Numbered from the stretch's first letter, positions 4,897 to 56,250 are shown. The stretch: 64,000 nt of DNA from an uncultured Gammaproteobacteria bacterium (GCA_963764725.1 CAVXTM010000018.1:576001-640000); one strand, 5' to 3'. Notes: generated from the sequence alone by a model not told the origin. Numbers and translations: made by a program.

Positions 4897-5110
4897 TAAC
4901 CTCTCTGCCTCCCTGCGCCTCTAACGCGCACTCTACGAACCGAATTTTGCTGGACCACACAGTCCTCGTCAGGTCTCTTCTCGAGTGGTGCAAGGCTGGA
5001 TTGCCAATTGTGTGATAAGCCCAAACCCAACGACCGAAATTCAATTCTCGGCGTTCCCCGCCCGGAATTGGGCAGGGAACACCCTAAGCTCGCCTACCCT
5101 CGAACCCAAA

Positions 5111-5764
5111 TCATGCCTCGACGCGAATATTATCGACAACCTTTATGACGCCAGGAGCCGACCACGCCGCCTCTTCAACTGCGTCGCGCTCGTACCACGT
5201 ATGTACTCGCCCGGATAGCGTAACTGTGGTGTCGCTTGACGTGACCTCGATGTGGGATGCTTCGAGTTCGGCGTTGCGTTTCAGTGCCTGCTCTATCTTC
5301 TGTTTCACTTCGAACGGCTTGACGCTGGGCTTGATCGCGATGTTGTTAAGCACCGAGCGGACACCCAGGATCGCGCGGGCGTTCCGTTCGGCCAGATCCT
5401 TCTGATATTGCCAGTCAACGTCGCCGTATACGGCCACCTGTCCCTTCTCGACTTCGACCTTGAGACGGTCAAACGGCAGCCCCGCAGTCCATCGAAAGGT
5501 ATTCAGAATGCTCGCTGCAATATCTGCGTCTGACCGTTCAGCCGATGACGGAAGCTTGACCTCAACCTCCTGAACAATTGCGTGCACGCCCTTCACCCGC
5601 CGCGTTGCCACCTCGGCAGCATGCTTCTCCATAAAACTGCTTACGTGCCCGCTGAGAGTCACAATGCCATTCTCAACTGCGACGCCGATGTGCGCGGCTT
5701 TTACGCTTGGTGCCCACTCGAGTTCGGCAAGGACATCTTTCTGGAGCTGCTTGTCGTCTTTCAT
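5111..5764 (-). CDS. Three-BON-domain (OsmY-like) protein
   Basis: Repeated GIVTLSGHV / VTLSGRV...AWSAPGV units; GGAGG RBS. Confidence 0.92.
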   Translation of the reverse strand: MKDDKQLQKDVLAELEWAPSVKAAHIGVAVENGIVTLSGHVSSFMEKHAAEVATRRVKGVHAIVQEVEVKLPSSAERSDADIAASILNTFRWTAGLPFDRLKVEVEKGQVAVYGDVDWQYQKDLAERNARAILGVRSVLNNIAIKPSVKPFEVKQKIEQALKRNAELEASHIEVTSSDTTVTLSGRVHTWYERDAVEEAAWSAPGVIKVVDNIRVEA

Positions 5765-9250: not shown

Positions 9251-9734
9251 GGCCGACCGGTAGCCTGCTCTGCGCCGATCAGGTGCATCTTTCGCAACGT
9301 TAGCTCGCCGAATGGCAGCATGCGACATGCCTCAAATGGGATGATCGGAAAAATGCGAGGGCTGCACAGCCTTACCATAACATCTACCCTCCTGATCGTC
9401 AGCGATCCGAGGGTATAAATTCTTTCACCGTGGACTTCTTTGCATTTAGCAAAGAAGTTTCGTCTGCCATTTGGTTGCGGCCGGAGGGCGCGCTAGGAAA
9501 AATAAGAGCCCTTTTTCGCCGACAAGAAAAGTACTGCTGGGCTAGGGAGGTGTCAAAGAGGCAAGTCCTCGGTGTCTTTCCCGAATATCCGTATCCAGAC
9601 GAGCAATCGATCGTTAAATACATCGTGAAGGGCAAAGTAAACAAGCTGTTTTTCGACGGATCTGGCCTCCGAAGAGAATGCAGTGTGTTTTATCGAAGCC
9701 TTTGTCGAGCGGTTGCCATTAGGCACAGTCGGAT

Positions 9735-10010
9735 TGATTCGCGGGGGCTGGCAGCGACGGAGCGTCCCGGTTATCATCCGGGGATGCTACTGAAGCGGTA
9801 CATCTATGGATATCTCAATCGGGTGTGTTCCAGTCGACTATTGGAGCGAGAGAGTTACTGAAACGGCTGGCCCCCGACTTTAAGACCATTGCGGAGTTCC
9901 GGTGGGCGAATAGCACTGCGATCGTGGGAGCACGTCGGGGGTTCATGCTGTTGTGTCGTGAGCTTGACCCATTTGGCGGTGAGTTAGCCGTCATTGACGG
10001 CAGCAAGTAA
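9735..10010 (+). mobile_element. IS1182-family transposase N-terminal remnant
   Basis: RPGYHPGMLLKRYIYGYLNRVCSSRLLERE...LAPDFKTIAEFR...AVIDGSK. Confidence 0.8.
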
Positions 10011-18308: not shown

Positions 18309-19466
18309 TCAGCGCACCACGAGCACCGGGCAGTGCGCGTGGGTCAGGACCTGCTTAGACACCGAGCCTACCAACAGGCGTTCGAAGAAACTCCTGCCGC
18401 GGTGACCCACCACGATGAGATCCACACCATTTTGCTCGGCCCGGTAAACGATCTGGTTGGCCGGGTGACCGGCGACGATCTCAAAGCGCGGGATTAGTCC
18501 CTGGGAGGCGGCTTGCGTTTTGAGGGCGTCGAAAAGCTCTTGGTAATGTGCCTCGGCGTTTTCCAGGATAGCCTCGGTCTCGACGTCTTCGGGAGGTTCG
18601 GGCGGACGCGCCACGGCGAGCACGCACCACGCGCGGCGATGACCGCCGCGACCAGAAACGAATATTGCGCCTGGTCGATGACCTGGTGACCCAAGCCGTA
18701 GAGCGCGGAAATGGTGCCGAACGTCAACCCCGCGGACATCACGAGCGTGGTAGACGTTGCCTCCTGAGCGGGGGCGCGGTAGAGATTTGCCCCGGGGCGT
18801 CTCGATCCTCTGCGCGTGCCCGTAGGACAGTGCGCTGTGGCGCGAGGCATTGGCGTGGATCTTCGTCCCATCCAGCGCAATCGTCCCGAGCTTCAGCAGC
18901 TTCATTTGCTTGGCGATGCGCAGGACCTCGACGAACAGCCGCTCGATTTCGGGCAGGAACCGCTTGCGGAATGCGCACAGCGTGTCGTGATCGGGATGGG
19001 TATTGGCGGCGATGTAGCGAAACGCGACCGAGTCATGGGAGGCCTGCTCGATGCGCCGGCTACCGAAGGTGCCGGTGGCATAGCCGTAGATCAGCAGCGC
19101 CAACAACACCCCCGGGTGATACGCCGCCGAGCCTGCGCCGCGATACTGGCGGATCAGCGCCGACAGGTCCAACTGCTCGACAATGTCCACCACAAAGCGC
19201 GCCAGATGGTCCTTGGGCAACCATTCATCCATCGATGGCGGCAGAAGATACTGGGTATCGCGATCACTTTGACGGAAGTGGCTCATCGATTTTCGCTCAT
19301 CGAGACGTTTGTCGATCTGATCGATCCGAATATCAAAAGTTCAACGTTAAGTCCGACAGGCTGCTAGGAGATCGGCGCCGTATCGCTTTGCCAAGTCCAG
19401 GGCGAAGCGGTAGGCCTTGTCCGCTGGCGCCGAACCGTCGTAGGCGGCGAGGATTTTGTTGATCAT
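18309..19466 (-). pseudogene. Universal stress protein gene interrupted by an IS
   Basis: N-terminus MINKILAAYDGS...YGADLL stops at CTAG (19364-19367); C-terminus VLAVARPPEPP...GSVSKQVLTHAHCPVLVVR resumes near 18625. Confidence 0.82.
18800..19367 (-). mobile_element. IS1182-family element, one end plus truncated transposase
   Basis: ORF from 19286: LLPPSMDEWLPKDHLARF...PDHDTL...LDGTKIHANAS; terminal CTAGCAGCCTGTCGGACTT. Confidence 0.87.
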
Positions 19467-19719: not shown

Positions 19720-20015
19720 TGCCTTCCTACGGGTAAGCGTGCGGACCAGTGGAACCGATAGACAGAAAGAAACGTATTTTCATCGTCACCTTCAAGAGGT
19801 CGCTTGGCGCCCAGCTGGGCCCTGCGGCCGAAAAAAGAATCGCAATCACGTTTTCTAATACGGCCGCGGTCCGGACATGACGAAACGAAGGCCTCCTTTG
19901 AATCTCTACCAACGGTAATCCATCGGGCCCGGTAAGCAGGGAGTGGGCTAGGCGCTAGCTCGAATGTGTGAGGAGGCTTTTCGTCTGCCCACACCTTCCC
20001 TGCTTCCGGGAACAT

Positions 20016-20068
20016 GTAGGCATCATCAGCCGTAACGGCGGTTATTTTTCAGGAGGCATGCCATCTCC
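20016..20068 (-). promoter_or_regulatory. Fluoride (crcB) riboswitch
   Basis: GGAGATGGCATGCCTCC...AACCGCC-GTTAC-GGCTGATGATGCCTAC fits the fluoride aptamer consensus; upstream of antiporter/USP genes. Confidence 0.88.
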
Positions 20069-20306
20069 TGTAATGCTTTCGCACGGAAAGTATAGGAGCA
20101 CCCAAGAAAGCGCGCAATGAAAAATCCCGAAAGCCTACGCCGGCCGGGTGTTCATCGCGCCCCGTCCATGGTCTAAATCTCCAATCCGCTCGATCCGTTG
20201 CTGGTCTGAGGCAACGAAGCCTTGGCCAGCAGAAAACGCCGGCGCGCGGTCCGGCGTTTGGTACGATATGAGGGATTCCAGCAGTACGTAGGATGAAATT
20301 CGACCC

Positions 20307-31590: not shown

Positions 31591-33594
31591 TTATCGATAT
31601 TTCGCTCGCCAACAGAAAGTGGAACCCAGCGACACAGCAATCATCCGGACCGTGACGTTTCGCTCTTGGGGTCCGCAATGAGCGCACTCCTCGCAGCTGC
31701 TCCAGCTTGGCTCATTCCGGCCTTTGGTGGCCACTCCGGCACACGGAGAGCTTGCTTGCCCACCGGTTCCGCGAAGTCCTGCTAGGCCAAGCCCTTGGCG
31801 CGTCGTTCGGGGAAGCACGTTGGGCAGAACTCCGAAGGTTTCTCCCCGTGGCGCGGCTCGATGTATTCGCCGCCACCGCACCGACCGCAAATGAAGTCTG
31901 TTAGCCACCCCCAGCCTCGATCGCTTGACCTTCTCCCACCAATGGCTGAAGCTATGGGGCCGGCCCGCTGCGCTGAGATGTTCCGGCAGGTAGGTGAGTT
32001 CGCCGCGCATCTCCGTCTTGCCCCGCACGTAGAGAGCCCAACCGAAATCCGCCAAGCGCTTGTGCCCTCGGATAGGATCCACGAAGTACCTCAAGTCGGT
32101 AGTTTCGTCCGTCAACCAGTCCCGAAAGGATAGATGAAAGAACGAGAGCCGTCCGTCTCTCGAGGTTATCAGAGAGCCGAGCGGTTCCAGAGTTCGCTTT
32201 CGCGCGTAGTTGTCCCAACCGAGTATCTCCGAGAGCGTTTCCACCGGCAGCGGCTCATAGGCTGCCGTAAGGATCTCAAGCAAGGGCCGCACGTACTCTT
32301 CGAACTGCCGCCACTGCTCATGGGCTCCGGACGAGAAGTGACGATCGAAGTAGAGCCTGTAGACAGATTTGAGGCCGCCCGGCAGCGTGCTCAGATCCTC
32401 CGGCGCCATTCTCCCGCTCTTGAGTTCATCAACGACCACGGAAGCGTAGAGAAAAACGCCTTCCGAGTTCCTGACCAATCGGTCGACGAGTACTGTGTTG
32501 CCGACGAGCGACTTCAGCTCTCGTTTGAAGTAGGTCCTGATATCTTGGACGTTGTCGGGGTGGCCGGTGTCGAGAGAAAAGGGAGTCAGGCGCGCTAGCA
32601 TGTTCAGCACAGCGGTCTCGGGGCGACTCGTTACGAACAGCCTGAACCAGCTCGGAACGAGAGACCAGGATTGCCCCAGGAGTTCGGCGAGCTCGCTCCG
32701 CCCCTCACGGAGGGTTTCATCTAGCGCGTCGACGACGACGAAGATCGTCGCTTCGGGCCGAGCAACGTGCCTCAGTGGTTGAACGATCAGCTGGTCGAAA
32801 GCGGTCGCCGCATTCCACGTCTTGTACCCCTCCATTCGGTGGTTTGCCAATAGCCCTCGGTACTCGGGAAGCTGTGTCGAGAGCTGATAGCTGATCGAGC
32901 CTATGGCTCGACGCGCATCGGATTTCACGACATCGGAGTAGTTGCACAGATGGACGGCACCCACCGCGGGATGTCGCTGGCTCAGATGGGCGCACAGGGC
33001 CGTCTTGCCGGTTCCCGGCCCGCCGGTCAGAAAGAATGCTCTGGACGCGTCCGGCGCCGCAAGCCAACCCTCCAGGGCGTCGAGCAACCATCGCCGGCCG
33101 AGGAAGCCCCGTGACTTCTGCTCGATCTCCGCGTCGAAGTCGAGAGGTGCCAGCAGGTCGATAAGTCGCGCCTGCGTACCTTCGAATTCGCCACCGTCCA
33201 TCGCCATCGCCGACCGAACGAGATCCAGCTTTTCGACAGTTCGGTCGGGAGCCTCTTCGTAGCCCCTGAGATCCAGCCACTGCAGCCGGCTGATGCAGAG
33301 CGGCGGACGAGAGTCCTCCACCATCAACGGCAGAATGCGCTTTCCGGAGAAACGAGCGAAGCTCAACTCATCGAGGCAGACGCCGTCGGGCCTGCGGACG
33401 GCATGGGGCGTCATCATTGCGATGACTACGTCACTCGCGGCGAGGCCTTCTTCGATAGACATTTCCCAGGCGCTTCCGTGCCTGATGTTGGTCTCGTCGA
33501 ACCACACCTGATGACCTGCTGCCGTCAGTGTCTCCTTCAGTTGCCTTGCCAGCGCGGCGTGCCGATCGTGGCCGTAGCTGATGAACACCCGCAT
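31591..33594 (-). CDS. TIR domain + NACHT-like P-loop NTPase, probably C-terminally truncated
   Basis: VFISYGH...WFD...CLDEL (TIR); GGPGTGKT, VVVDALDE, FVTSRP, FFHLSFRDWL. Confidence 0.85.
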   Translation of the reverse strand: MRVFISYGHDRHAALARQLKETLTAAGHQVWFDETNIRHGSAWEMSIEEGLAASDVVIAMMTPHAVRRPDGVCLDELSFARFSGKRILPLMVEDSRPPLCISRLQWLDLRGYEEAPDRTVEKLDLVRSAMAMDGGEFEGTQARLIDLLAPLDFDAEIEQKSRGFLGRRWLLDALEGWLAAPDASRAFFLTGGPGTGKTALCAHLSQRHPAVGAVHLCNYSDVVKSDARRAIGSISYQLSTQLPEYRGLLANHRMEGYKTWNAATAFDQLIVQPLRHVARPEATIFVVVDALDETLREGRSELAELLGQSWSLVPSWFRLFVTSRPETAVLNMLARLTPFSLDTGHPDNVQDIRTYFKRELKSLVGNTVLVDRLVRNSEGVFLYASVVVDELKSGRMAPEDLSTLPGGLKSVYRLYFDRHFSSGAHEQWRQFEEYVRPLLEILTAAYEPLPVETLSEILGWDNYARKRTLEPLGSLITSRDGRLSFFHLSFRDWLTDETTDLRYFVDPIRGHKRLADFGWALYVRGKTEMRGELTYLPEHLSAAGRPHSFSHWWEKVKRSRLGVANRLHLRSVRWRRIHRAAPRGETFGVLPNVLPRTTRQGLGLAGLRGTGGQASSPCAGVATKGRNEPSWSSCEECAHCGPQERNVTVRMIAVSLGSTFCWRAKYR

Positions 33595-33870
33595 CTCGTT
33601 CCGCAACGCCCTCTCGCCAAGAGTCCTCAGGTAAGTTGCCGCAGTATAGTCGCAACAAAGCCTCTTCCCCAAGTAGACCGAGTCATCCCAGATCACCAGA
33701 CACTGTCTAGTAGCCGTCAACTTGCTCTCCAACTAGAAACAGTTCTTGGTGAGACCGCTCGCCAAATAGTCACGGTTCTTTGGTAGCCACCTAAACTGTA
33801 CCCACGTCATCGATGACTGGCGCTGGCGAAGACCGCATGCTCGACGAGCGAATGCGTGAACGATAGGCTT

Positions 33871-33997
33871 CCGTTCATCCAGATTTTGATAGACGGAAGC
33901 GCCCGAGGTAATATCTTGTCCGGAAAGAGCATCCTCGGTACGACCAGACCTATTGCGGGAAGAGGTAGACGGAATGGATGCTCTGTTCACATAACAG
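33871..33997 (+). repeat. attI-like element, copy 1 (about 125 bp)
   Basis: Clearly homologous to 44280-44405; ends CTGTTCACATAACAG/TCGGGC. Confidence 0.7.
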
Positions 33998-34097
33998 TCG
34001 GGCGTCCAAAAGATCTAGGAGGTTTTGCGTCGGAGTTGATCTAAGCGAAGCTGTGCTCTGGTCCCTGTCGTCGTGCAATTCACCAAGGAGATACGTC

Positions 34098-42479: not shown

Positions 42480-42679
42480 TCCGGATTGTGACTTTTGACG
42501 ACAAGCGTGGTATTGCGAAGCGCCGTCGTCAGGGTCCCGCAGCAGCGCGTGGGGTCCCGCGCCCGCGCAGTCGCTATTAAGCGTAAAGCCGACCTTGATG
42601 CCGCGGGCCATTGCCGCGTGGATGAAGGCATCCGTCAAAAGCTGGAGCAAAGAGTTGCCTTCGGCCGTGGCCTGTTTTG

Positions 42680-43013
42680 AGGATGATTTCGCTTATCGCC
42701 CATCTGCGGCTCCCGATCGCACACCGGCGGGTGACGCGAACAACAAATCTATTAGAGCGCTTGTTCCTTGAAGAACGCCGGCGAACAAAAACCATTCCTC
42801 ATGCGTTCGGTAAACGCGCCGTCTTGAAACTTATGTTCGCCGCTATCCTACGGGCTTCCCAACCCTGGCTCAGGATCGGTATGAACGACTTCGAACGGCG
42901 GCAGCTTCAGGCACTGCGCCAGGAACTCGAACAACAGTTTCATGAACGAAATACTGTATCCATAAAACCCGCATCCCGCTCAGAAATTTACAGCAACCGG
43001 GGGGGACTTGGCC
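42680..43013 (+). mobile_element. IS256-family transposase C-terminal remnant
   Basis: RTTNLLERLFLEERRRTK. Confidence 0.78.
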
Positions 43014-43328
43014 TGACAGTCGCCGGCTTAACTAGCGTCAATTCCTCGCGCCAGCCTGGCCAGATCCGAGAGACCCAGGCCCTGAGAAAGCGGTCCATAC
43101 GGCGAAGCTTCGGCCGGGGGTTGACGGCGCTGATACACGTTAAGCTGGTGCCGAAGCATTGTGTTCTCCATCTGTAGTGCTGCGCGAGAGCGAAAGAAGG
43201 TGCACACAAGGGTAGACATCATGGAACACGCGAGGGTGTCGAGGGTTCCCTGTCACCCTACATCCAAATGCTTTCCCCAAGCTAGATCTGCAGCCTTTCA
43301 ACTACATATGGATTTTCGGGAAGACAGG
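43014..43328 (-). mobile_element. Integrase-core-type IS, N-terminal remnant and end
   Basis: RSRAALQMENTMLRHQL...WPGWRE..LVKPATV; terminal CCTGTCTTCCCGAAAATCC. Confidence 0.7.
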
Positions 43329-43376
43329 TGTTCTTGCTTGCCGGCAACGTGCCCGCGCGCACCGACGCTTTTCGTT
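43329..43376 (+). repeat. Right half of an attC site
   Basis: Aligns closely with the right half of attC 44920-45009; ends TTC-GTT. Confidence 0.7.
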
Positions 43377-43497
43377 CAGCGTCCGCTTTGAGGTGAATCA
43401 CGATGTCGGTGTGAATGACTCCTCCGGGTCAACAAGCGTCCCATATTTGTGATGAGCCAGACTTGTGCTTCCCCACTGAGAATGGAGGAAACACACC

Positions 43498-44132
43498 ATG
43501 TACAGCAACGCAAATAGCGCCGACATCGGCGCCAACCACAATCCGTGGAACAAGGGCCGACTGATCGGGCCGAAACCCCCATTGAAACTCCGAGATCTGG
43601 GCGATTCGGATTCGACTGCAACTGGCCAAGCGCGCCAGAGACCTTGCCCTTTTCAACCTCTCCATCGACAGCAAGCTTCGGGGCTGTGATCTCGTCAAAC
43701 TCCAGGTACGCGATGTCGCGCATAGCGGCCGGGTCATTCCCCGGGCAACGGTCATGCAGCAGAAAACGGGGCAGCCCGTCAAGTTTGAATTGACCGAGCA
43801 AACGCGAGAAGCGGTCGAGGCCTGGATCGCCAAGGCGCAACTTTGCTCCAGTCAATTTCTATTTCCAAGCCGCATGACCCGCTCACCGCATATTTCGACC
43901 CGGCAGTATGCGCGGATCGTGAAATCGTGGGTCGCTCGCATCGGATTGAACCCGGGAGATTACGGAACCCACTCGATGCGCCGCACCAAGGCGACACTGA
44001 TTCTACCGGCGAACGAAAAACCTCCGAGCGGTGCAGCTATTGCTCGGGCACACCAAGCTGGAAAGCACGGTCAGATACCTCGGCATCGAGGTCGATGATG
44101 CCTTAGAGATGTCGGAGCAAACCGAAGTCTGA
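43498..44132 (+). pseudogene. Small tyrosine recombinase (about 210 aa, not IntI), two frameshifts
   Basis: PWNKGRLIGPKPPL, DSKLRGCDL, HSMRRT, LLGH, VRYLG. Confidence 0.88.
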
Positions 44133-44279
44133 AACCATTTAAAACCGGCAGCGTCCGCCCAGTGCGGTCGCTTGCCGGCCAGAAACAGTCAGTGGCGCGT
44201 AGCCCAAGACACCGCGGTAGCGGACACTCGGGGAAGCACCGTGCTCGCCCGCGAAGTGCAGCTGGCCGAGCTGCCGGAC

Positions 44280-44411
44280 CCGTTCATCCAGATTTGGATA
44301 GACGGAAGCGTCAGAGGTAGTATGTTGTTCGGAAAAGGCTTCCTGGCTACGACCAGACCTATTGCGGGAAGAGATAGACGGAATGATGTTCTGTTCACAT
44401 AACAGTTAGAT
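44280..44411 (+). repeat. attI-like element, copy 2
   Basis: Internal repeat TAGACGGAA twice; ends CACATAACAG/TTAGAT 9 nt before a cassette ORF. Confidence 0.7.
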
Positions 44412-44420
44412 TCCTCGACC

Positions 44421-44912
44421 ATGCCAACGGTCCATCCATTGCGTGCGGTTTGGCTTCTCATTGCGAGACCTCGTCGGTTTGTCGAACTGGCGACTCGCCA
44501 TGACATCGACCAGGAGTTCCAACGGAACCCCCAACTGCTTGCTGCTTACCCCTCCCGCGAGCTCCCACCCGAAAGGGTGAAGAATTTCGAGGACAACGCA
44601 CAAGATCGTACCCGGAAGATGCGGAGTGCATTTGGGTCTGCGCTGTGGTCAACGGGTACCGCCGTTCTGCTTGGTTACCTTGTGGGGTGGGGCGTCGCCG
44701 CATACTGTGGGAAACCACCTCTCTGGGTGGTCTCTGTTCTCGCGGTCTCCGGGGCGGCCGTCATTCTCGTCGCCACGCTCGCGCTTCTGGGCTGGGAAAT
44801 CCAATCGTACAAGGGCGTCTCCCTGCCGGAGAAGGTCAACCGATGGTTGTTTCGCTCGCAGTATTGGTTCGGCACCTTTCTCATTGTGCTTTCTCTATCG
44901 TGCAGCACCTGA
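44421..44912 (+). CDS. Integron cassette gene, membrane protein
   Basis: Between GTTAGAT and an attC; three hydrophobic segments. Confidence 0.82.
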   Translation: MPTVHPLRAVWLLIARPRRFVELATRHDIDQEFQRNPQLLAAYPSRELPPERVKNFEDNAQDRTRKMRSAFGSALWSTGTAVLLGYLVGWGVAAYCGKPPLWVVSVLAVSGAAVILVATLALLGWEIQSYKGVSLPEKVNRWLFRSQYWFGTFLIVLSLSCST

Positions 44913-44919
44913 TGAGCGA

Positions 44920-45009
44920 AGCTAATTTTTGCGTGCAGCGGACGCGCCGGAAGCAGCGTTCTTCTTTGCCAGCAAAGTGCCGGCGCGCCGCTGACGCAAT
45001 TCGTTAGCC
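44920..45009 (+). repeat. attC site
   Basis: AGCTAAT...GCGTGCAGCGGACGCGCCGG / CCGGCGCGCCGCTGACGC...GTTAGCC imperfect palindrome with extrahelical bases. Confidence 0.87.
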
Positions 45010-45030
45010 CTGATATCTCGAAAGTGTGGA

Positions 45031-45879
45031 ATGCCTATGAGCGAAGTCGAGGATCGCTACAAGACGATTTGCACCGATTTCGACACGCTCGTCACCTACG
45101 GGATTCGAGTATCTACATCGCTCGGAGGAAAAAACGCTCCGCACGATCGCGAATACTACGCTGATCGGATCTTTAGCAAGCTGCTTTGCCATGCAATCAC
45201 GCTCAAGCATATTGTCCCAACGGGATTGTCCCCCGTGGCTGCCGGCTACTCCGAACTTTGGGATGTCTCATCGGCGTGCGCTGTCTCGCGAGCGTTGCTT
45301 GAAGCATATGACACGCTGGCCTACGTCGCCATTGAGGATGTTCAGGTTGGCGAACGAGAGTTCCGAATCTTATTGTGGAAGTTGCATTCCGCAGAACGGA
45401 GACAGAAGATGCTTAGGCTCATTGGCTCGACCGCGCCGGCCGTCTTGGAAGTGGACAAGAACGTCACTGAGTTGCGCCAGAAACTAACCACGCATGATTT
45501 CTTCGACAGCGTAGAAGCAGGGCTGAAAAGAAAGGCTCGGAATGGCAACGTTCCACCTTTTCACCTGAGTCAGGCGGGGCGGAACAAGCGTGCCGGTGTG
45601 AATCACGAGTACTACAACGCCGCCCTAATGTTTCTTTCATCCTATGTCCACACCCACCCGTTTTCCGTTCACCAACTAATGGAATTTCGGGCCGGTGACC
45701 CGGAGAGTTTGAGGCTAATGTCCTCGCCTGTTCAATACGCGTCGGGCTTTCTCGCCAAAGGAATCGAGGGTACGAGTCTAGTCTTCGGGGATATTGTGCC
45801 GCTCCCATCGGAGGCAGAATCCGAAATCCAGAGCACTTGGATCGAGATTATTAGAAATGGCTTCGCAAGAGTCGGCTAA
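45031..45879 (+). CDS. Integron cassette gene, DUF5677-like helical protein
   Basis: SRALLE and FLSSYVH motifs; stop codon inside the attC R'' box. Confidence 0.78.
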   Translation: MPMSEVEDRYKTICTDFDTLVTYGIRVSTSLGGKNAPHDREYYADRIFSKLLCHAITLKHIVPTGLSPVAAGYSELWDVSSACAVSRALLEAYDTLAYVAIEDVQVGEREFRILLWKLHSAERRQKMLRLIGSTAPAVLEVDKNVTELRQKLTTHDFFDSVEAGLKRKARNGNVPPFHLSQAGRNKRAGVNHEYYNAALMFLSSYVHTHPFSVHQLMEFRAGDPESLRLMSSPVQYASGFLAKGIEGTSLVFGDIVPLPSEAESEIQSTWIEIIRNGFARVG

Positions 45880-45941
45880 CCCATCAATCAACCGGACCGC
45901 CAAAAAGCTACGCTTCTTGTCGTCCGGTTATCTCAAGCGTT
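45874..45941 (+). repeat. attC site
   Basis: GGCTAAC (complement of cassette-start GTTAGCC)...AACCGGAC / GTCCGGTT...CAAGC-GTT. Confidence 0.88.
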
Positions 45942-46210
45942 CAGCGTCCGCTTTGAGGTGAATCACGATGTTGGAGTGAATGACTCCTCCGGGTCGGCAA
46001 GCGCCTCATATTGTGACGAGCCAGACTTGTGTTTCCCCACTGAGTATGGAGAAAACACACCATGTACAGCAACGCAAATAGCACAGATGTCCAGTGCCAT
46101 TCACAATCCGTGGAACAAAGGCCGACTGATCGGACCGAAGCCCCCATTGAAACCGCAAGAGATCTGTGCGATTCGGATCCGACTGCAACTGGCCAAGCGC
46201 GCCAGAGACC
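45939..46210 (+). mobile_element. Second, truncated copy of the recombinase unit
   Basis: Homologous to sequence from 43374; encodes HNPWNKGRLIGPKPPLKPQEICAIRIRL. Confidence 0.87.
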
Positions 46211-46283
46211 GTTTATTTACTCTATGGGCCGCAGCTCACCGGGAGCGTTATGTGGCAAAACCTTCCCGAAGGAGGCTAGGAGA

Positions 46284-47099
46284 ATGATTCCGAACAGCGG
46301 CGCCATCAACTGGGTGATTGACCCTGTCACGCGGGCGATTGGATACGTCCTCGAAGAAACGAAGATTGTAGGTACTCTCCACAGGAGCCTTGCCGTGTTG
46401 GAAGGTCATGAGATTTTCCTGCGGTTGGCTCGAGAGAAGTTCGTGGAGGCAGAAACGAAAGAGGGCCTACCTTACATCGACCAGCTTATCGCGCAGGCAC
46501 CAGGTTTAAGTAAGGAAGCTGCCGAACTCCGGCAGAACGACTACTCGGTGGTGAATAGCCACAGTCTCATCGGAATGTGGGGTGCCGTAGAGATCGCGGT
46601 TGAGGATACGGTAGTGCTCGTACTCTCCAAGGAAACCTCCGCCCTCGGCGTGGTAGCCAATGCTGGTGTCAAGATAGCGAAGTTCGAGGGGCCAGTATCG
46701 GAAGACGATGCCCGAATTCTATTCTCTCGGCTTGAGCGGAAGCTTCGGGAAAGCCTAAAAGGAAAAGTGGGAGAGTTCTATGTCCAACTCCTCGGTCTCT
46801 TTGGAGTAAAGTTTAGCTGCAGCCGCCACACCCTTTCCAAACTGGATGAAATAAATTGCGTGAGGAACTGCATCCTGCACCGCGGCGGTATCATCGACGA
46901 TCGAGCAGCCCAGATTGACGGATTAAGGCCATTTCTGGGGACGCAGTTCCCGACCACGCAAGCTCGTTACCTTGAATACTATGATGCAATCGGTGATTTT
47001 TTGAAGGAGATGCTGAACGCGGTACTTGCAAGCAGCTACATTCAAACCGTGCCGAGCGGGACAAGTGGTTCTTCCAATGCCACATTACGCACGCCCTGA
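46284..47099 (+). CDS. Integron cassette gene with HEPN-like RxxxxH motif
   Basis: Follows attC right end GTTATGT (46247-46253); RNCILH; ends at ACATTAC (degenerate R''). Confidence 0.72.
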   Translation: MIPNSGAINWVIDPVTRAIGYVLEETKIVGTLHRSLAVLEGHEIFLRLAREKFVEAETKEGLPYIDQLIAQAPGLSKEAAELRQNDYSVVNSHSLIGMWGAVEIAVEDTVVLVLSKETSALGVVANAGVKIAKFEGPVSEDDARILFSRLERKLRESLKGKVGEFYVQLLGLFGVKFSCSRHTLSKLDEINCVRNCILHRGGIIDDRAAQIDGLRPFLGTQFPTTQARYLEYYDAIGDFLKEMLNAVLASSYIQTVPSGTSGSSNATLRTP

Positions 47100-47165
47100 G
47101 CTGGGCACGTTCAGCGTCCGCTTTGAGGTGAATCACGATGTCGGTGTGAATGACTCCTCCGGGTC
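47082..47165 (+). repeat. Internally deleted attC plus third short copy of the recombinase-unit leader
   Basis: ACATTAC...CTGAGCTGGGCAC-GTTCAGCGTCCGCTTTGAGGTGAATCACG. Confidence 0.75.
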
Positions 47166-47423
47166 GTTACTGCGCCCATCGGGAAAGCACCGCCTGGGGT
47201 GAAGAAGCTTACGACGGACAGCAACAATTCCGAATCCGAAGCGGGCCACACCCTTGACCACTGCTGAACAGAAGGAAATCTGGCGATCCTAATTCGCCTA
47301 CAGCCCGCTCAGCGGACCCGAGATCTTCCTCTGTTCAATCGTGCTACCGACATTACGCGGCCCAGCGAGAGATTTGAGTTTCCTAGAAGCACGAGTAACA
47401 TATGATGCAAAGGAGCCTATTCG

Positions 47424-47648
47424 ATGAGCACCAGCATCCTTTCTCCTGAGCAAATCGCCAAACTTACAGCCGAGCAGCGTCTCGCGCTGATCGAAGCGCT
47501 GTGGGATAGCCTGGAGCAAGATGACTTACCGATTACACCTGCGCAAGCGGCAGAACTTGATCGTCGCATGGAGACCTACGAGCAGGATGCTGTCAACGCG
47601 CAGCCGTGGGAGGCGGTGAGGAAGCGCATTGAGCGCAACTTGCTTTGA
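47424..47648 (+). CDS. Addiction-module antitoxin
   Basis: LTAEQRLALIEALWDSL...AELDRR...PWEAV. Confidence 0.87.
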   Translation: MSTSILSPEQIAKLTAEQRLALIEALWDSLEQDDLPITPAQAAELDRRMETYEQDAVNAQPWEAVRKRIERNLL

Positions 47649-47863
47649 AAATGGACGCGTTGATCCTGTACCGAAGGGGCCGAGCGTGACATGGACAACC
47701 CACAGCAATTTCCCGTCGTACACCGCGACAAGCGTCGCGCGCTACTGAAGCGCTTTCCGTACGGGTTATATTTCTTATATTTCCGGATCGAGTTGACGTC
47801 TGCGGTGGTGGTCGGCTGTTTCCACGGGCATCGAAACCCAACGGCGTGGAAATCTCGCCAATA
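47645..47863 (+). pseudogene. RelE/ParE toxin remnant
   Basis: NPQQFPVVHRDKRRALLKRFPYGLYF...GCFHGHRNP across frames. Confidence 0.7.
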
Positions 47864-47976
47864 GTGTCAAGCGAAGCTGTCAGTTCGTCAGTTTGGGCGG
47901 ATGGTCGTTAGCCCGCGAGCTCCTCCCAAAAGCGAAGGCTGTTGCACTGCCTCCGGAGGCAGTCCCTCAAACCGAA

Positions 47977-54252: not shown

Positions 54253-56250
54253 TCAGAGCCCGAACGGGTAGGTGTCGGGCAGCTCCTCCGATGTGGGCCG
54301 CCGAACCGCCTCCAGCGGCTGCACCGCGCGCGTCTCGTCGAACCAGAGATACTCGTCGAACTGCTGCGGTAGGCTCGCCAGGAAGTAGTGGCTGGCGAGT
54401 TCCGTCTCGGGCCGATACACGACGCCGATGGCCCGCTCGAGGCGCGGCGGCGCCAACTCTTCGCGGACGGCCGCGCGCGCGGGCTCCCGTAGGTGCAACG
54501 CGCACGCGCGCACACCGGTGTCGTGGAAGATGCGTTCGTAGCTGGCCTCGTGGGCGGGGCGCACGGACATCCTCTCCATGGGCTCGTCCCAGTCGGAAGC
54601 CGCCGCGACGGTCCCTCGATCGGTGCCGAAGCCGACGATGTACGCGGCTTCGCCGTAGGCGACGCGGCACAGCTGCCCGACGTTGTGCTCGCCACGAACG
54701 CTCATCTCGGTAGCGCTGGCGTCGCCCACGTGCGAGTTGTGCTCCCAGACGATCCCCTTCGAACCGGGGCCGTAGAAGGCGAGCAGCGACTGCAGCGTGT
54801 CGAACATGTGCGCGTCTCGCAGGTTCCAGGACGCGACCGAACCGTAGTACAGGGCGCGGTAGTAACGCTCCGCGTCCGCGACCAGGCGCGCATTCTGCGC
54901 GGCATCGAAGAAGCGCTCGCCGTCCTTCTGCGCGTACTCGATCCTGCGCGCCAGCATGTCGCGGAGCATGGCGACCACGGCCTGCTCCGCGCTCTCGTAG
55001 CGCCCCGCCAGCACGGCCCGGCCATAGGCCCCCGGGTCCTGTTGCCACGGCGTCAATGTGCCGTACCTCTGCCGCGCGACGCGCGACGCGGTGGGATCGA
55101 CCTCGTCGAGGTAGGCGAGGACCGCCGCGATGGACGTGAACAGGCTGTAGAGGTCGAGCCCGTGGAAGCCGACCCTGGCCGCGCCGACATCGAGCGCCGC
55201 GTTGTGCACGCGCAGCCACTCGACCAGCTCGTGGACTTCCTCGTTCCTCCACATCCAGGTGGGAAAGCGCGAGAAGGGGGTGAACCCGGGCGTCGAGCGC
55301 GGCCTCTCCCCGCGCACGTAGTCGTCGATGCGCGCCGCGTCGGGCCAGTCGGCCTCGACGGCTACGAACTGGAAGCCCCGCCGGCTCACCAGCTCCTTCG
55401 TGATCCGTGCCCGCATGCGGTAGAACTCGCTCGTCCCGTGCGTCGACTCGCCGAGCAGGACCAGGCGAGCGTCGGCGATCCGCTCAAGCAGCGCGTCGAG
55501 GGCGGTGGTCTCGATGTCGTCGATCGGCTCGGCCGCCTCGCGGAGGAGGGTCGGGAGCCCGGTCGATCTCGTCGGGAAACGGGCGCCGCGCAGGCGAGCC
55601 GGCTCCTCGCCCCACCCTTGCTCCCCGACCAGCGGCACGAAGCGCACTTCGGCGATCGGCTCTTGCCGGTAGTCCGTTTCGCCGTCTCGGGTAACACGGA
55701 CCAACGTCTGCAGCGCCTCGTCGGGACCGACAGGCAGGACCAGCCGACCGCCGACGGCTAGCTGCTCGAGCAGCGCGCGAGGCACCCGGGGGGCGCCCGC
55801 CGAAACTACGATTGCGTCGTACGGCGCGTGCTCCGCCCACCCGACGGAGCCGTCCGCGCAGAGTATGTGGATATTCTCATAGCCGAGGCGCGCGAGGCGC
55901 TTGCGCGCCTCTTCGAAGAGGGAGCGCACGCGCTCGACCGTGTACACCTCGGAGGTCAGCCGACTCAGGATCGCTGCGGCGTACCCGGAGCCGGTGCCGA
56001 TCTCCAGTACGCGTTCCCCTCCGCGGAGCCCGAGCGCCTCGACGGTCATCGCCACCACGTGCGGCTGCGAGATCGTCTGCCCTTCGCCTATGGGCAGCGG
56101 CGTGTCCTCGTATGCGAACTCGGCGAGCCGTGGCGGCAGGAACACCTCTCGCGGCACGCTACGGAACGCCTCGAGGATGCGCCGGTCCGTGATGCCTCGC
56201 CGCGCGAGGACCTCGGTCATCCGCTCGCGCAGACCTTCGAATTCGATCAT
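54253..56250 (-). CDS. Protein-L-isoaspartate O-methyltransferase fused to erythromycin-esterase-like domain
   Basis: QTISQP, VLEIGTGSGY; LGESTHGTSEFY, EADWPD, WEHNSH, ERAIGVVY. Confidence 0.92.
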   Translation of the reverse strand: MIEFEGLRERMTEVLARRGITDRRILEAFRSVPREVFLPPRLAEFAYEDTPLPIGEGQTISQPHVVAMTVEALGLRGGERVLEIGTGSGYAAAILSRLTSEVYTVERVRSLFEEARKRLARLGYENIHILCADGSVGWAEHAPYDAIVVSAGAPRVPRALLEQLAVGGRLVLPVGPDEALQTLVRVTRDGETDYRQEPIAEVRFVPLVGEQGWGEEPARLRGARFPTRSTGLPTLLREAAEPIDDIETTALDALLERIADARLVLLGESTHGTSEFYRMRARITKELVSRRGFQFVAVEADWPDAARIDDYVRGERPRSTPGFTPFSRFPTWMWRNEEVHELVEWLRVHNAALDVGAARVGFHGLDLYSLFTSIAAVLAYLDEVDPTASRVARQRYGTLTPWQQDPGAYGRAVLAGRYESAEQAVVAMLRDMLARRIEYAQKDGERFFDAAQNARLVADAERYYRALYYGSVASWNLRDAHMFDTLQSLLAFYGPGSKGIVWEHNSHVGDASATEMSVRGEHNVGQLCRVAYGEAAYIVGFGTDRGTVAAASDWDEPMERMSVRPAHEASYERIFHDTGVRACALHLREPARAAVREELAPPRLERAIGVVYRPETELASHYFLASLPQQFDEYLWFDETRAVQPLEAVRRPTSEELPDTYPFGL

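Follow-up and report, generated by a model that had tools for sequence, protein, structure and literature searches.

Why does one short sequence begin three times, at exactly the same base, within a single integron array? The question is raised by a 64,000-nucleotide (nt) stretch of an uncultured Gammaproteobacteria genome (GCA_963764725.1, CAVXTM010000018.1:576001-640000), which we call the window, number from its first letter, and refer to as C18:576001-640000 of a 4.2-Mb assembly of 19 contigs that is 96.9% complete. Here a 32-nt leader starts at 43374, 45939 and 47109, and the first copy runs into a broken gene for a small tyrosine recombinase that is followed by an attI site. A gene cassette by definition starts at the G/TT crossover (the slash marks the crossover point) of the preceding attC site. 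We put forward, as a reading that we consider fairly probable, that an integron gene cassette has the leader as its 5' end, and that this cassette carried the small recombinase as cargo, was spread by integron integrases (IntI) and was then eroded; leader identity would begin at G/TT because cassettes start at that crossover.

Leader copies and the attC sites in front of them

All three window copies are exact matches to the leader, no further match with three or fewer mismatches was found in the window, and the chance expectation was zero matches across 100 shuffles of the window. From the C preceding GTT onward copies 1 to 3 are identical, and their 5' flanks are unrelated in the alignment, so that an earlier note on this DNA was right both about the three starts behind different flanks and about identity setting in at the core GTT apart from one shared C. 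The genome-wide leader search that it advised raised the number of copies to seven, the four outside the window being C9:1876, C10:67794 (minus strand), C12:112872 (minus strand) and C12:313589. Each of the seven has CGTTCAGCG as its first bases, with other flanks before it; the two copies on C12 have the same upstream flank and are for that reason regarded as a duplication.

The attC sites of this genome have a clear consensus in common. Covariance model R1 was built from ten attCs that do not adjoin leaders, and in model R2 the window attC at 45879-45945 became a training sequence. The attC structure was entered by hand, RNAalifold on a MAFFT alignment having recovered only the R stem. Four home-made attC scanners and a right-arm regular expression were too noisy for an array map and were used only to choose candidates for the model and fold tests; nhmmer with two attC seeds matched only those seeds, and a blastn-short self-comparison of the arrays returned nothing for C15 and C7. 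With model R1 the window attC 45879-45945, which is not one of its seeds, ends exactly on the GTTCAGC of copy 2 (E=1.8e-6). The attCs in front of the C10 copy (R1 E=0.016, R2 E=0.0012) and the C9 copy (R1 E=0.086, R2 E=0.059) likewise end exactly on GTTCAGC. The upstream scoring that the earlier note had proposed thus places a model-supported attC, its last position 6 nt after the G of GTTCAGC, in front of three of the seven leader copies in this genome and leaves the remaining four unsupported. In relatives, both leader copies follow an attC ending on GTTCAGC, that of G007:C168 with E=0.027 and 0.0014 and that of G001:C291 with E=0.0051 in a small search. These relatives are unpublished genomes, which also underlie what is said below of the intact recombinase copy in G001 and its left border, of the order of modules in G007 and of the attI in G009. 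The core GTTCAGC had been called non-canonical; it is not far outside the range of this genome, whose attC cores include GTTCGGC, GTTAGGC and GTTGGGC.

Behind the shared start the copies differ greatly in extent. Copy 1 is the full-length unit. Copy 2 resembles it over about 274 bp at 89% identity (45938-46210) and is then joined to another open reading frame (ORF), and copy 3 has 57 nt in common with copy 1 and diverges beyond them, these 57 nt being the stretch common to all seven genome copies. Among nine leader copies, homology to the full unit ends at positions 57, 57, 64, 64, 65, 97, 159, about 270 and at full length, and five of these ends (57, 57, 64, 64 and 65) fall inside the left inverted repeat (IRL) of the recombinase unit described below. 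The same front of 57-70 nt precedes four different bodies. An intact recombinase copy in G001 (G001:C60) sits behind a DUF899 gene with no attC there, and its homology begins only at about leader position 41-44; we therefore take the first ~36 nt of the leader as cassette sequence and the remainder as the left end of the recombinase unit. In G007 the order is attI, cassette, leader. On C12 (region 112816-112872, locus L100) a second IRL-like stretch lies 12 nt past the IRL break and is nearer the family consensus; it may be a trace of another, diverged recombinase unit.

The small recombinase and the attI module

The recombinase gene of copy 1 is spread over three frames, with breaks near 43592 and 44002, the first of which is absent from contigs of other samples. 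It keeps R...HxxR...H...Y and its sole Pfam match is PF00589; the earlier note describes a frameshifted protein of about 210 amino acids (aa) with this motif, and intact relatives are typically of 211 aa. The family comprises at least 8000 proteins (all 8000 scored candidates have E≤1e-5), and a family relative is encoded at 555 of 600 pattern matches in contigs taken at one genome per species. It is matched by 450 plasmid records, including pMOL30 of Cupriavidus metallidurans and a P. aeruginosa megaplasmid, and across classes its members are 67-96% identical, with R, HxxR, H and Y kept. The intact homologue P0006 scores 28.7 bits against the integron integrase model TIGR02249 (cut-off 265), as against 496.6 bits for this genome's IntI, and a genome-wide TIGR02249 search found no place on C18. 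Aligned to this genome's IntI, the protein lacks about 90 N-terminal residues and the IntI insertion, with gaps at the place of the insertion, for which the note had seen no room. Judged by its sequence, the small recombinase is not IntI. Its best NCBIfam matches are Xer models (XerA_Arch, 76.7 bits), well under the family cut-offs of 220-335, and the nearest solved structures are XerD (1a0p and 5dcf) and XerA (5hxy), at E=2.5e-8 to 2.7e-4. In those parts of the literature that our search reached, no report was found of a described function for this family or of a cassette-borne tyrosine recombinase.

The neighbours of the recombinase gene are mutually unrelated in 30 public loci. What is conserved around the gene is non-coding, namely an inverted repeat some 75-50 nt before the start with its partner 30-55 nt past the stop, a hairpin over the ribosome-binding site and a terminator-like hairpin, and this conservation ends at the repeats' outer edges. 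The inverted-repeat score is at least 24 in 8 of 37 loci, with arms at -86..-46 and +30..+68, and alignments of the repeats agree; in four relatives' loci, homology to the unit of copy 1 ends at 44180-44190, within its right inverted repeat (IRR). Neither the first 40 nt of the leader nor the attI module occurs in any of 80 public family loci, and an attC-like match within 3 kb is present in only 4 of the 80, in none of them adjacent to the gene. A check of the multiple copies in Caballeronia pSBC2-1 gave no sign of recent transposition, since these copies are only 70-76% alike. Other loci show the company that the gene can keep. In Pseudomonas (plasmid NZ_CP129201.1 of P. aeruginosa, 4983-5603, locus L095, and also locus L079) the recombinase lies directly behind a phosphite-oxidation cluster, phnCDE-ptxD-LysR; the LysR flank recurs in 622 plasmid records, mostly of Klebsiella, at 95-99% identity, and in these the similarity ends some 60 bp short of the recombinase start, approximately at the left repeat, which is uninformative on mobility. 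An IS91-family gene (IS, insertion sequence; Y2 transposase) lies within 1.5 kb downstream of the recombinase in 2 of the 30 loci (L022 and L074).

Copy 1 is followed by an attI module of about 130 bp (44279-44409), of which the genome holds seven copies. The copy C9:764-897 is separated by 94 bp from the start of a divergent intI remnant (83 aa, 72% identical to the intact IntI on C15), upstream of which it lies, and is the only one of the seven with such a neighbour. By its homology to this C9 site, the end of the copy 1 unit, which the earlier note had called attI-like, is a real attI. The module is not a hairpin (fold z=-1.55) and is unlike the regions adjoining the other IntI loci. Six of the seven copies end in AACAG/TTAG and then differ (TTAGAT, TTAGGG twice, TTAGGC, TTAGCC and TTAGAC), and contigs of other samples show varied sequence after 44407-44409. 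Three copies lie directly behind leader sequence within arrays, and six of the seven are without intI, as are the attI copies in G007 and G009, where G009:C288 keeps the intI-proximal sequence. Two short gene-less units, C9:1876-2086 and C5:115268-115441, have leader position 97 joined to attI; because they share this internal junction, the gene-less unit must have been copied. The attI copies at C18:505k and C1:396k have a common downstream flank. The proposition that the left edge of attI is always a crossover was unsupported, no attC-like fold being present upstream of the C18:505k copy (z=-0.85 and -0.58).

Three IntI loci lie above the TIGR02249 cut-off, C15:164702-165643 being intact, C7:99992-100918 having one stop and C13:52921-53691 being in two pieces; further intI fragments are at C12:400958-401314 and C9:425-670. 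The attC sites are scattered over many contigs, with the densest model-found cluster at 30-47 kb of C13. The window itself holds a second attI, an orphan that ends in AACAGT/CGGGCGTCC (reading AACAGT/CGGG), not in G/TTAG, and directly adjoins a gene for a 713-aa TIR / NACHT-like ATPase (31591-33732, minus strand), which looks like a defence gene.

At the 3' end of the cassette, copy 3 is the more informative. Its unit (47110-47333) is 224 bp long and has no ORF, and it ends in a hairpin (47263-47339; z=-4.44, with 0 of 200 shuffles folding as well) that begins with GCTGAAC as R'', complementary at all seven positions to the leader core GTTCAGC; for this reason copy 3 looks like a cassette with its own attC. 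In copy 1 the stretch 44139-44288 is structured, with an outer stem CCGGCAGC/GCTGCCGG, and ends in GTTCATC (z=-2.72, with 3 of 200 shuffles as good); this predicted fold makes it a weak candidate for the attC that would belong to the recombinase cassette. A contig of sequencing run X4 has 159 other letters between 44276 and 44280, and another X4 contig carries, behind the hairpin 47037-47108, the leader and the recombinase gene start in place of the window's copy 3. Since the X4 contigs vary at these points, we take the copy 3 site and 44276-44280 as real module borders. A local alignment of the sequence behind IRL in copy 3 with the tail of copy 1 gave 18 of 22 matches, borderline by a rough estimate, and was not used.

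A proposed history of the cassette and competing readings

We now put forward a history that would account for these modules. The ancestral cassette would have consisted of about 36 nt, then a ~780-bp unit with the recombinase gene between IRL and IRR, a short tail, and an attC with GCTGAAC as R''. To judge from the boundaries, integron integrases of the host lineage would have copied this cassette into at least seven attC sites, and decay would have followed in the form of the frame breaks of copy 1, of deletions starting in or just behind IRL (copies 2 and 3 and those on C9, C10 and C12) and of joining to the bodies of other cassettes. Copy 1 and the short C9 and C5 units have attI, not attC, at their 3' end, and the unit from leader to attI, with G/TT at both ends, could serve as a pseudo-cassette, an attI-bearing circle entering any attC through the favoured attI x attC reaction. 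The small recombinase, for its part, would probably work at its own repeats, with inversion or local deletion as the result; the way in which break ends crowd into IRL suggests past cutting by the enzyme at this repeat, and the enzyme may itself have caused the deletions at its left repeat. We read the recombinase as cargo because the boundaries are of the IntI type at attC and attI, the family has sites of its own and it shows no tie to attC elsewhere. Among the options listed in the earlier note, a recombinase-bearing cassette fits best, with its left edge at G/TT and with copy 3 showing a matching attC-like end; an integron-like system run by a different recombinase is not supported, the enzyme being no IntI and having its own inverted repeats, and the leader start, attI and adjacent attC being missing from the 80 public family loci.

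A number of observations weigh against the cassette reading. Four of the seven genome copies, namely copies 1 and 3 and both on C12, are without a model-supported attC in front. The earlier note had each window copy following an attC right arm, and this holds in full only for copy 2, whose attC is complete and model-supported. Copy 1 is preceded by no more than a right arm, similar by BLAST to that of the C9 attC; the left arm is missing. The copy 3 flank is a weak hairpin (47037-47115, z=-0.66) with no model match, and in the two C12 flanks there is a consensus-like right arm, GCCGCTGA-N7-CGTT, also with no model match. At the 3' end, the recombinase cassette of copy 1 does not finish in a canonical attC, since R'' and R' are complementary there at only three of seven positions and the structured stretch 44139-44288 has no attC model match, and the copy 3 hairpin does not match the genome-specific attC model. 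The assembly has no cognate IntI for the attI; the nearest match is 72% identical. Circular junctions, which the note had suggested looking for, were sought in the contigs of four runs (contigs only), and no clean one was seen; joints that go back have unknown letters in between and look like the arrangement on C9, where the order is attI, cassette, leader. In this check the best run holds 0.46 of the window's sampled words, and the uncovered parts were not used. Finally, four bodies on one front are more than plain cassette copying can give, and extra deletion and fusion events are needed.

Three other explanations have to be set beside the cassette reading. The unit might be a mobile element that targets attC, a counterpart of the IS1111-attC elements whose own tyrosine recombinase cuts at the G/TT used by IntI. 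The position of the recombinase gene within the unit, the five of nine leader-copy ends inside IRL, suggesting a cut by the enzyme, and the four public loci with an attC-like match within 3 kb are in its favour, but none of those four matches adjoins the gene, the leader start is in 0 of the 80 public loci, and the conserved repeats of the family are found 40-60 nt into the leader and not at the G/TT edge. The intact G001 copy, moreover, sits behind the DUF899 gene with no attC and with homology from ~41-44 only, and the enzyme is without the IntI insertion, the part of the integrase that reads folded attC. Nothing in the data requires such an element, and we consider it improbable.

It could also be that there was no site-specific movement at all and that homologous recombination, segmental duplication and deletion among decaying arrays produced the pattern, the shared start being inherited cassette sequence. 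Integron debris is indeed abundant in this genome (attCs that are truncated, seven attI copies none of which has a working intI and, next to the array, an IS256 remnant), the two C12 copies are a duplication, and C18:505k and C1:396k share a downstream flank. Against this, at least five different upstream flanks end at one base and three complete attCs (five with the relatives) end on the crossover, which is not what random duplication would be expected to give when different flanks, complete attCs among them, stop at a single base; we regard this explanation as unlikely. That the three copies are an assembly artefact, a repeat collapse or a chimera, is very hard to credit. The genome appears, from its relatives and from the runs in which it recurs, to be metagenome-assembled, and the repeated modules draw very many contigs in run X1, yet copies 1 and 2 are not the same (89% identity) and their flanks are unique, the same types of junction (attC then leader, and varied sequence past the end of attI) recur in contigs of three other studies, and relatives carry the same modules. 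The earlier note had named such an artefact as one outcome that would overturn its observation, and these findings speak against it.

Within the cassette reading, a further-reaching idea is advanced tentatively and must be called rather doubtful as a whole. The ~780-bp block of recombinase and inverted repeats would be a self-contained module, self-inverting or mobile, that is spread across Proteobacteria and plasmids and is unstudied. Having entered the cassette pool, it would have offered its left repeat as a breakpoint that joins one front to new bodies, and by capturing attI it would have made a movable attI able to seed recruiting sites at any attC.

The array, its significance and known systems

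The array extends over ~43.3-47.9 kb and comprises a truncated attC, the recombinase cassette, attI, a cassette for a 163-aa protein, one for a 282-aa protein, copy 2 with a 270-aa ORF, copy 3 and a probable toxin-antitoxin cassette (Table 1). In the 282-aa cassette, R'' of the attC (GGCTAAC) complements the cassette's own start, GTTAGCC. The C-terminal remnant of an IS256-family transposase (42677-43177, plus strand) lies directly left of the array and could be why the first attC has no left arm; housekeeping genes border the array on the right. The covariance models found no attC between the orphan attI (33.9 kb) and 43.3 kb.

Table 1. Features of the array and the orphan attI, in window coordinates
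Feature	Position	Strand	Basis or remarks
Second, orphan attI	33871..33998	+	intI-proximal sequence kept, no intI
Truncated attC right arm before copy 1	43338..43373	+	BLAST to C9 attC right arm; no model match; IS256-family remnant upstream
Leader copy 1	43374..43430	+	~36 nt, then left end of recombinase unit
IRL, left inverted repeat	43416..43438	+	Repeat pair seen through copy 2; family alignment
Small tyrosine recombinase pseudogene, 211-aa family	43498..44132	+	Two frame breaks; PF00589
Structured stretch, candidate attC	44139..44288	+	DNA fold; no model match
IRR, right inverted repeat	44169..44191	+	Relatives' unit homology stops here
attI module	44283..44409	+	Direct repeats GATAGACGGAA twice; ends ...AACAG/TTAG; 95% identical to C9:764-897
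Cassette: ORF 44421-44912 (163 aa, no family) and attC 44920-45009	44405..45009	+	attC E=5.5e-8, R1 seed
Cassette: ORF 45031-45879 (282 aa, no family) and attC 45879-45945	45004..45945	+	attC E=1.8e-6, non-seed
Leader copy 2	45939..46220	+	IRL and first ~55 recombinase codons, then fused to another cassette body
270-aa ORF, no family, body fused behind copy 2	46287..47099	+	Weak hairpin 47037-47115
Leader copy 3	47109..47165	+	Leader match, alignment
Small ORF-less cassette (copy 3)	47110..47339	+	Leader, IRL, body and attC-like hairpin 47263-47339
Antitoxin-like gene	47424..47648	+	PF09720, TIGR02574; weak attC-like match 47836-47913

Elsewhere in the window there is a fluoride riboswitch (20010-20077, minus strand; RF01734, 55.2 bits, where the gathering score is 34) with small ORFs downstream, and a 665-aa fusion of protein-L-isoaspartate methyltransferase and erythromycin-esterase-family domains (54253-56250, minus strand). 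DUF772 transposase fragments lie at 18309-19286 (minus strand) and 9430-9861 (plus strand), one of them in frame with a universal stress protein domain, which is probably a broken insertion sequence.

Repeated starts at the crossover follow ordinary integron logic, and it is the cargo that is unusual. A recombinase that is borne on a cassette and whose breakpoints cluster in its own repeat hints at the target of the enzyme. Moreover, attI occurs inside arrays, flanked left and right by crossovers, and none of its seven copies has a working intI, which suggests that attachment sites can be moved like cassettes; if this is true, a movable attI would offer arrays one route to splitting, to fusing and to founding new recruiting sites.

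As to the enzyme, Xer recombinases are its nearest solved relatives by sequence and give its best NCBIfam matches; unlike them, it scores under the Xer cut-offs, is without the N-terminal DNA-binding domain and has no dif-like context. With the FimB and FimE invertases (NF007371 and NF007370) it has in common a length of about 200 aa, essentially the catalytic domain only, and short inverted repeats nearby, but it scores 29.4 bits against the NF007371 cut-off of 222, and its repeats flank the recombinase gene, not a promoter segment. IS1111-attC elements and group IIC-attC introns, whose enzymes are an IS110-family transposase or a reverse transcriptase and whose insertion point is within attC, are likewise repeated elements at a fixed position relative to attC; here a PF00589 recombinase is the sole enzyme, and the cassette crossover itself forms the boundary. 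The array as a whole resembles a CALIN, reportedly defined in the IntegronFinder work of Cury and colleagues from 2016 as a cluster of attC sites lacking an integrase, in its G/TT-bounded units, its attCs between small, mostly unannotatable ORFs, its terminal toxin-antitoxin cassette and the lack of an adjacent intI. It differs from a CALIN in having a cassette family with a tyrosine recombinase and inverted repeats of its own, an attI in mid-array behind the recombinase cassette, and one 57-nt front on four bodies. We know of no report of attI as the recombination site of a movable unit, and none on a movable attI was found in the parts of the literature that our search reached. The module shares with the attI of known integrons its position 94 bp from an intI start (on C9), two direct repeats and a G/TT end followed by varied first cassettes; it differs from these in being present in seven copies in one genome, six of them without intI and three directly behind leader sequence in arrays.

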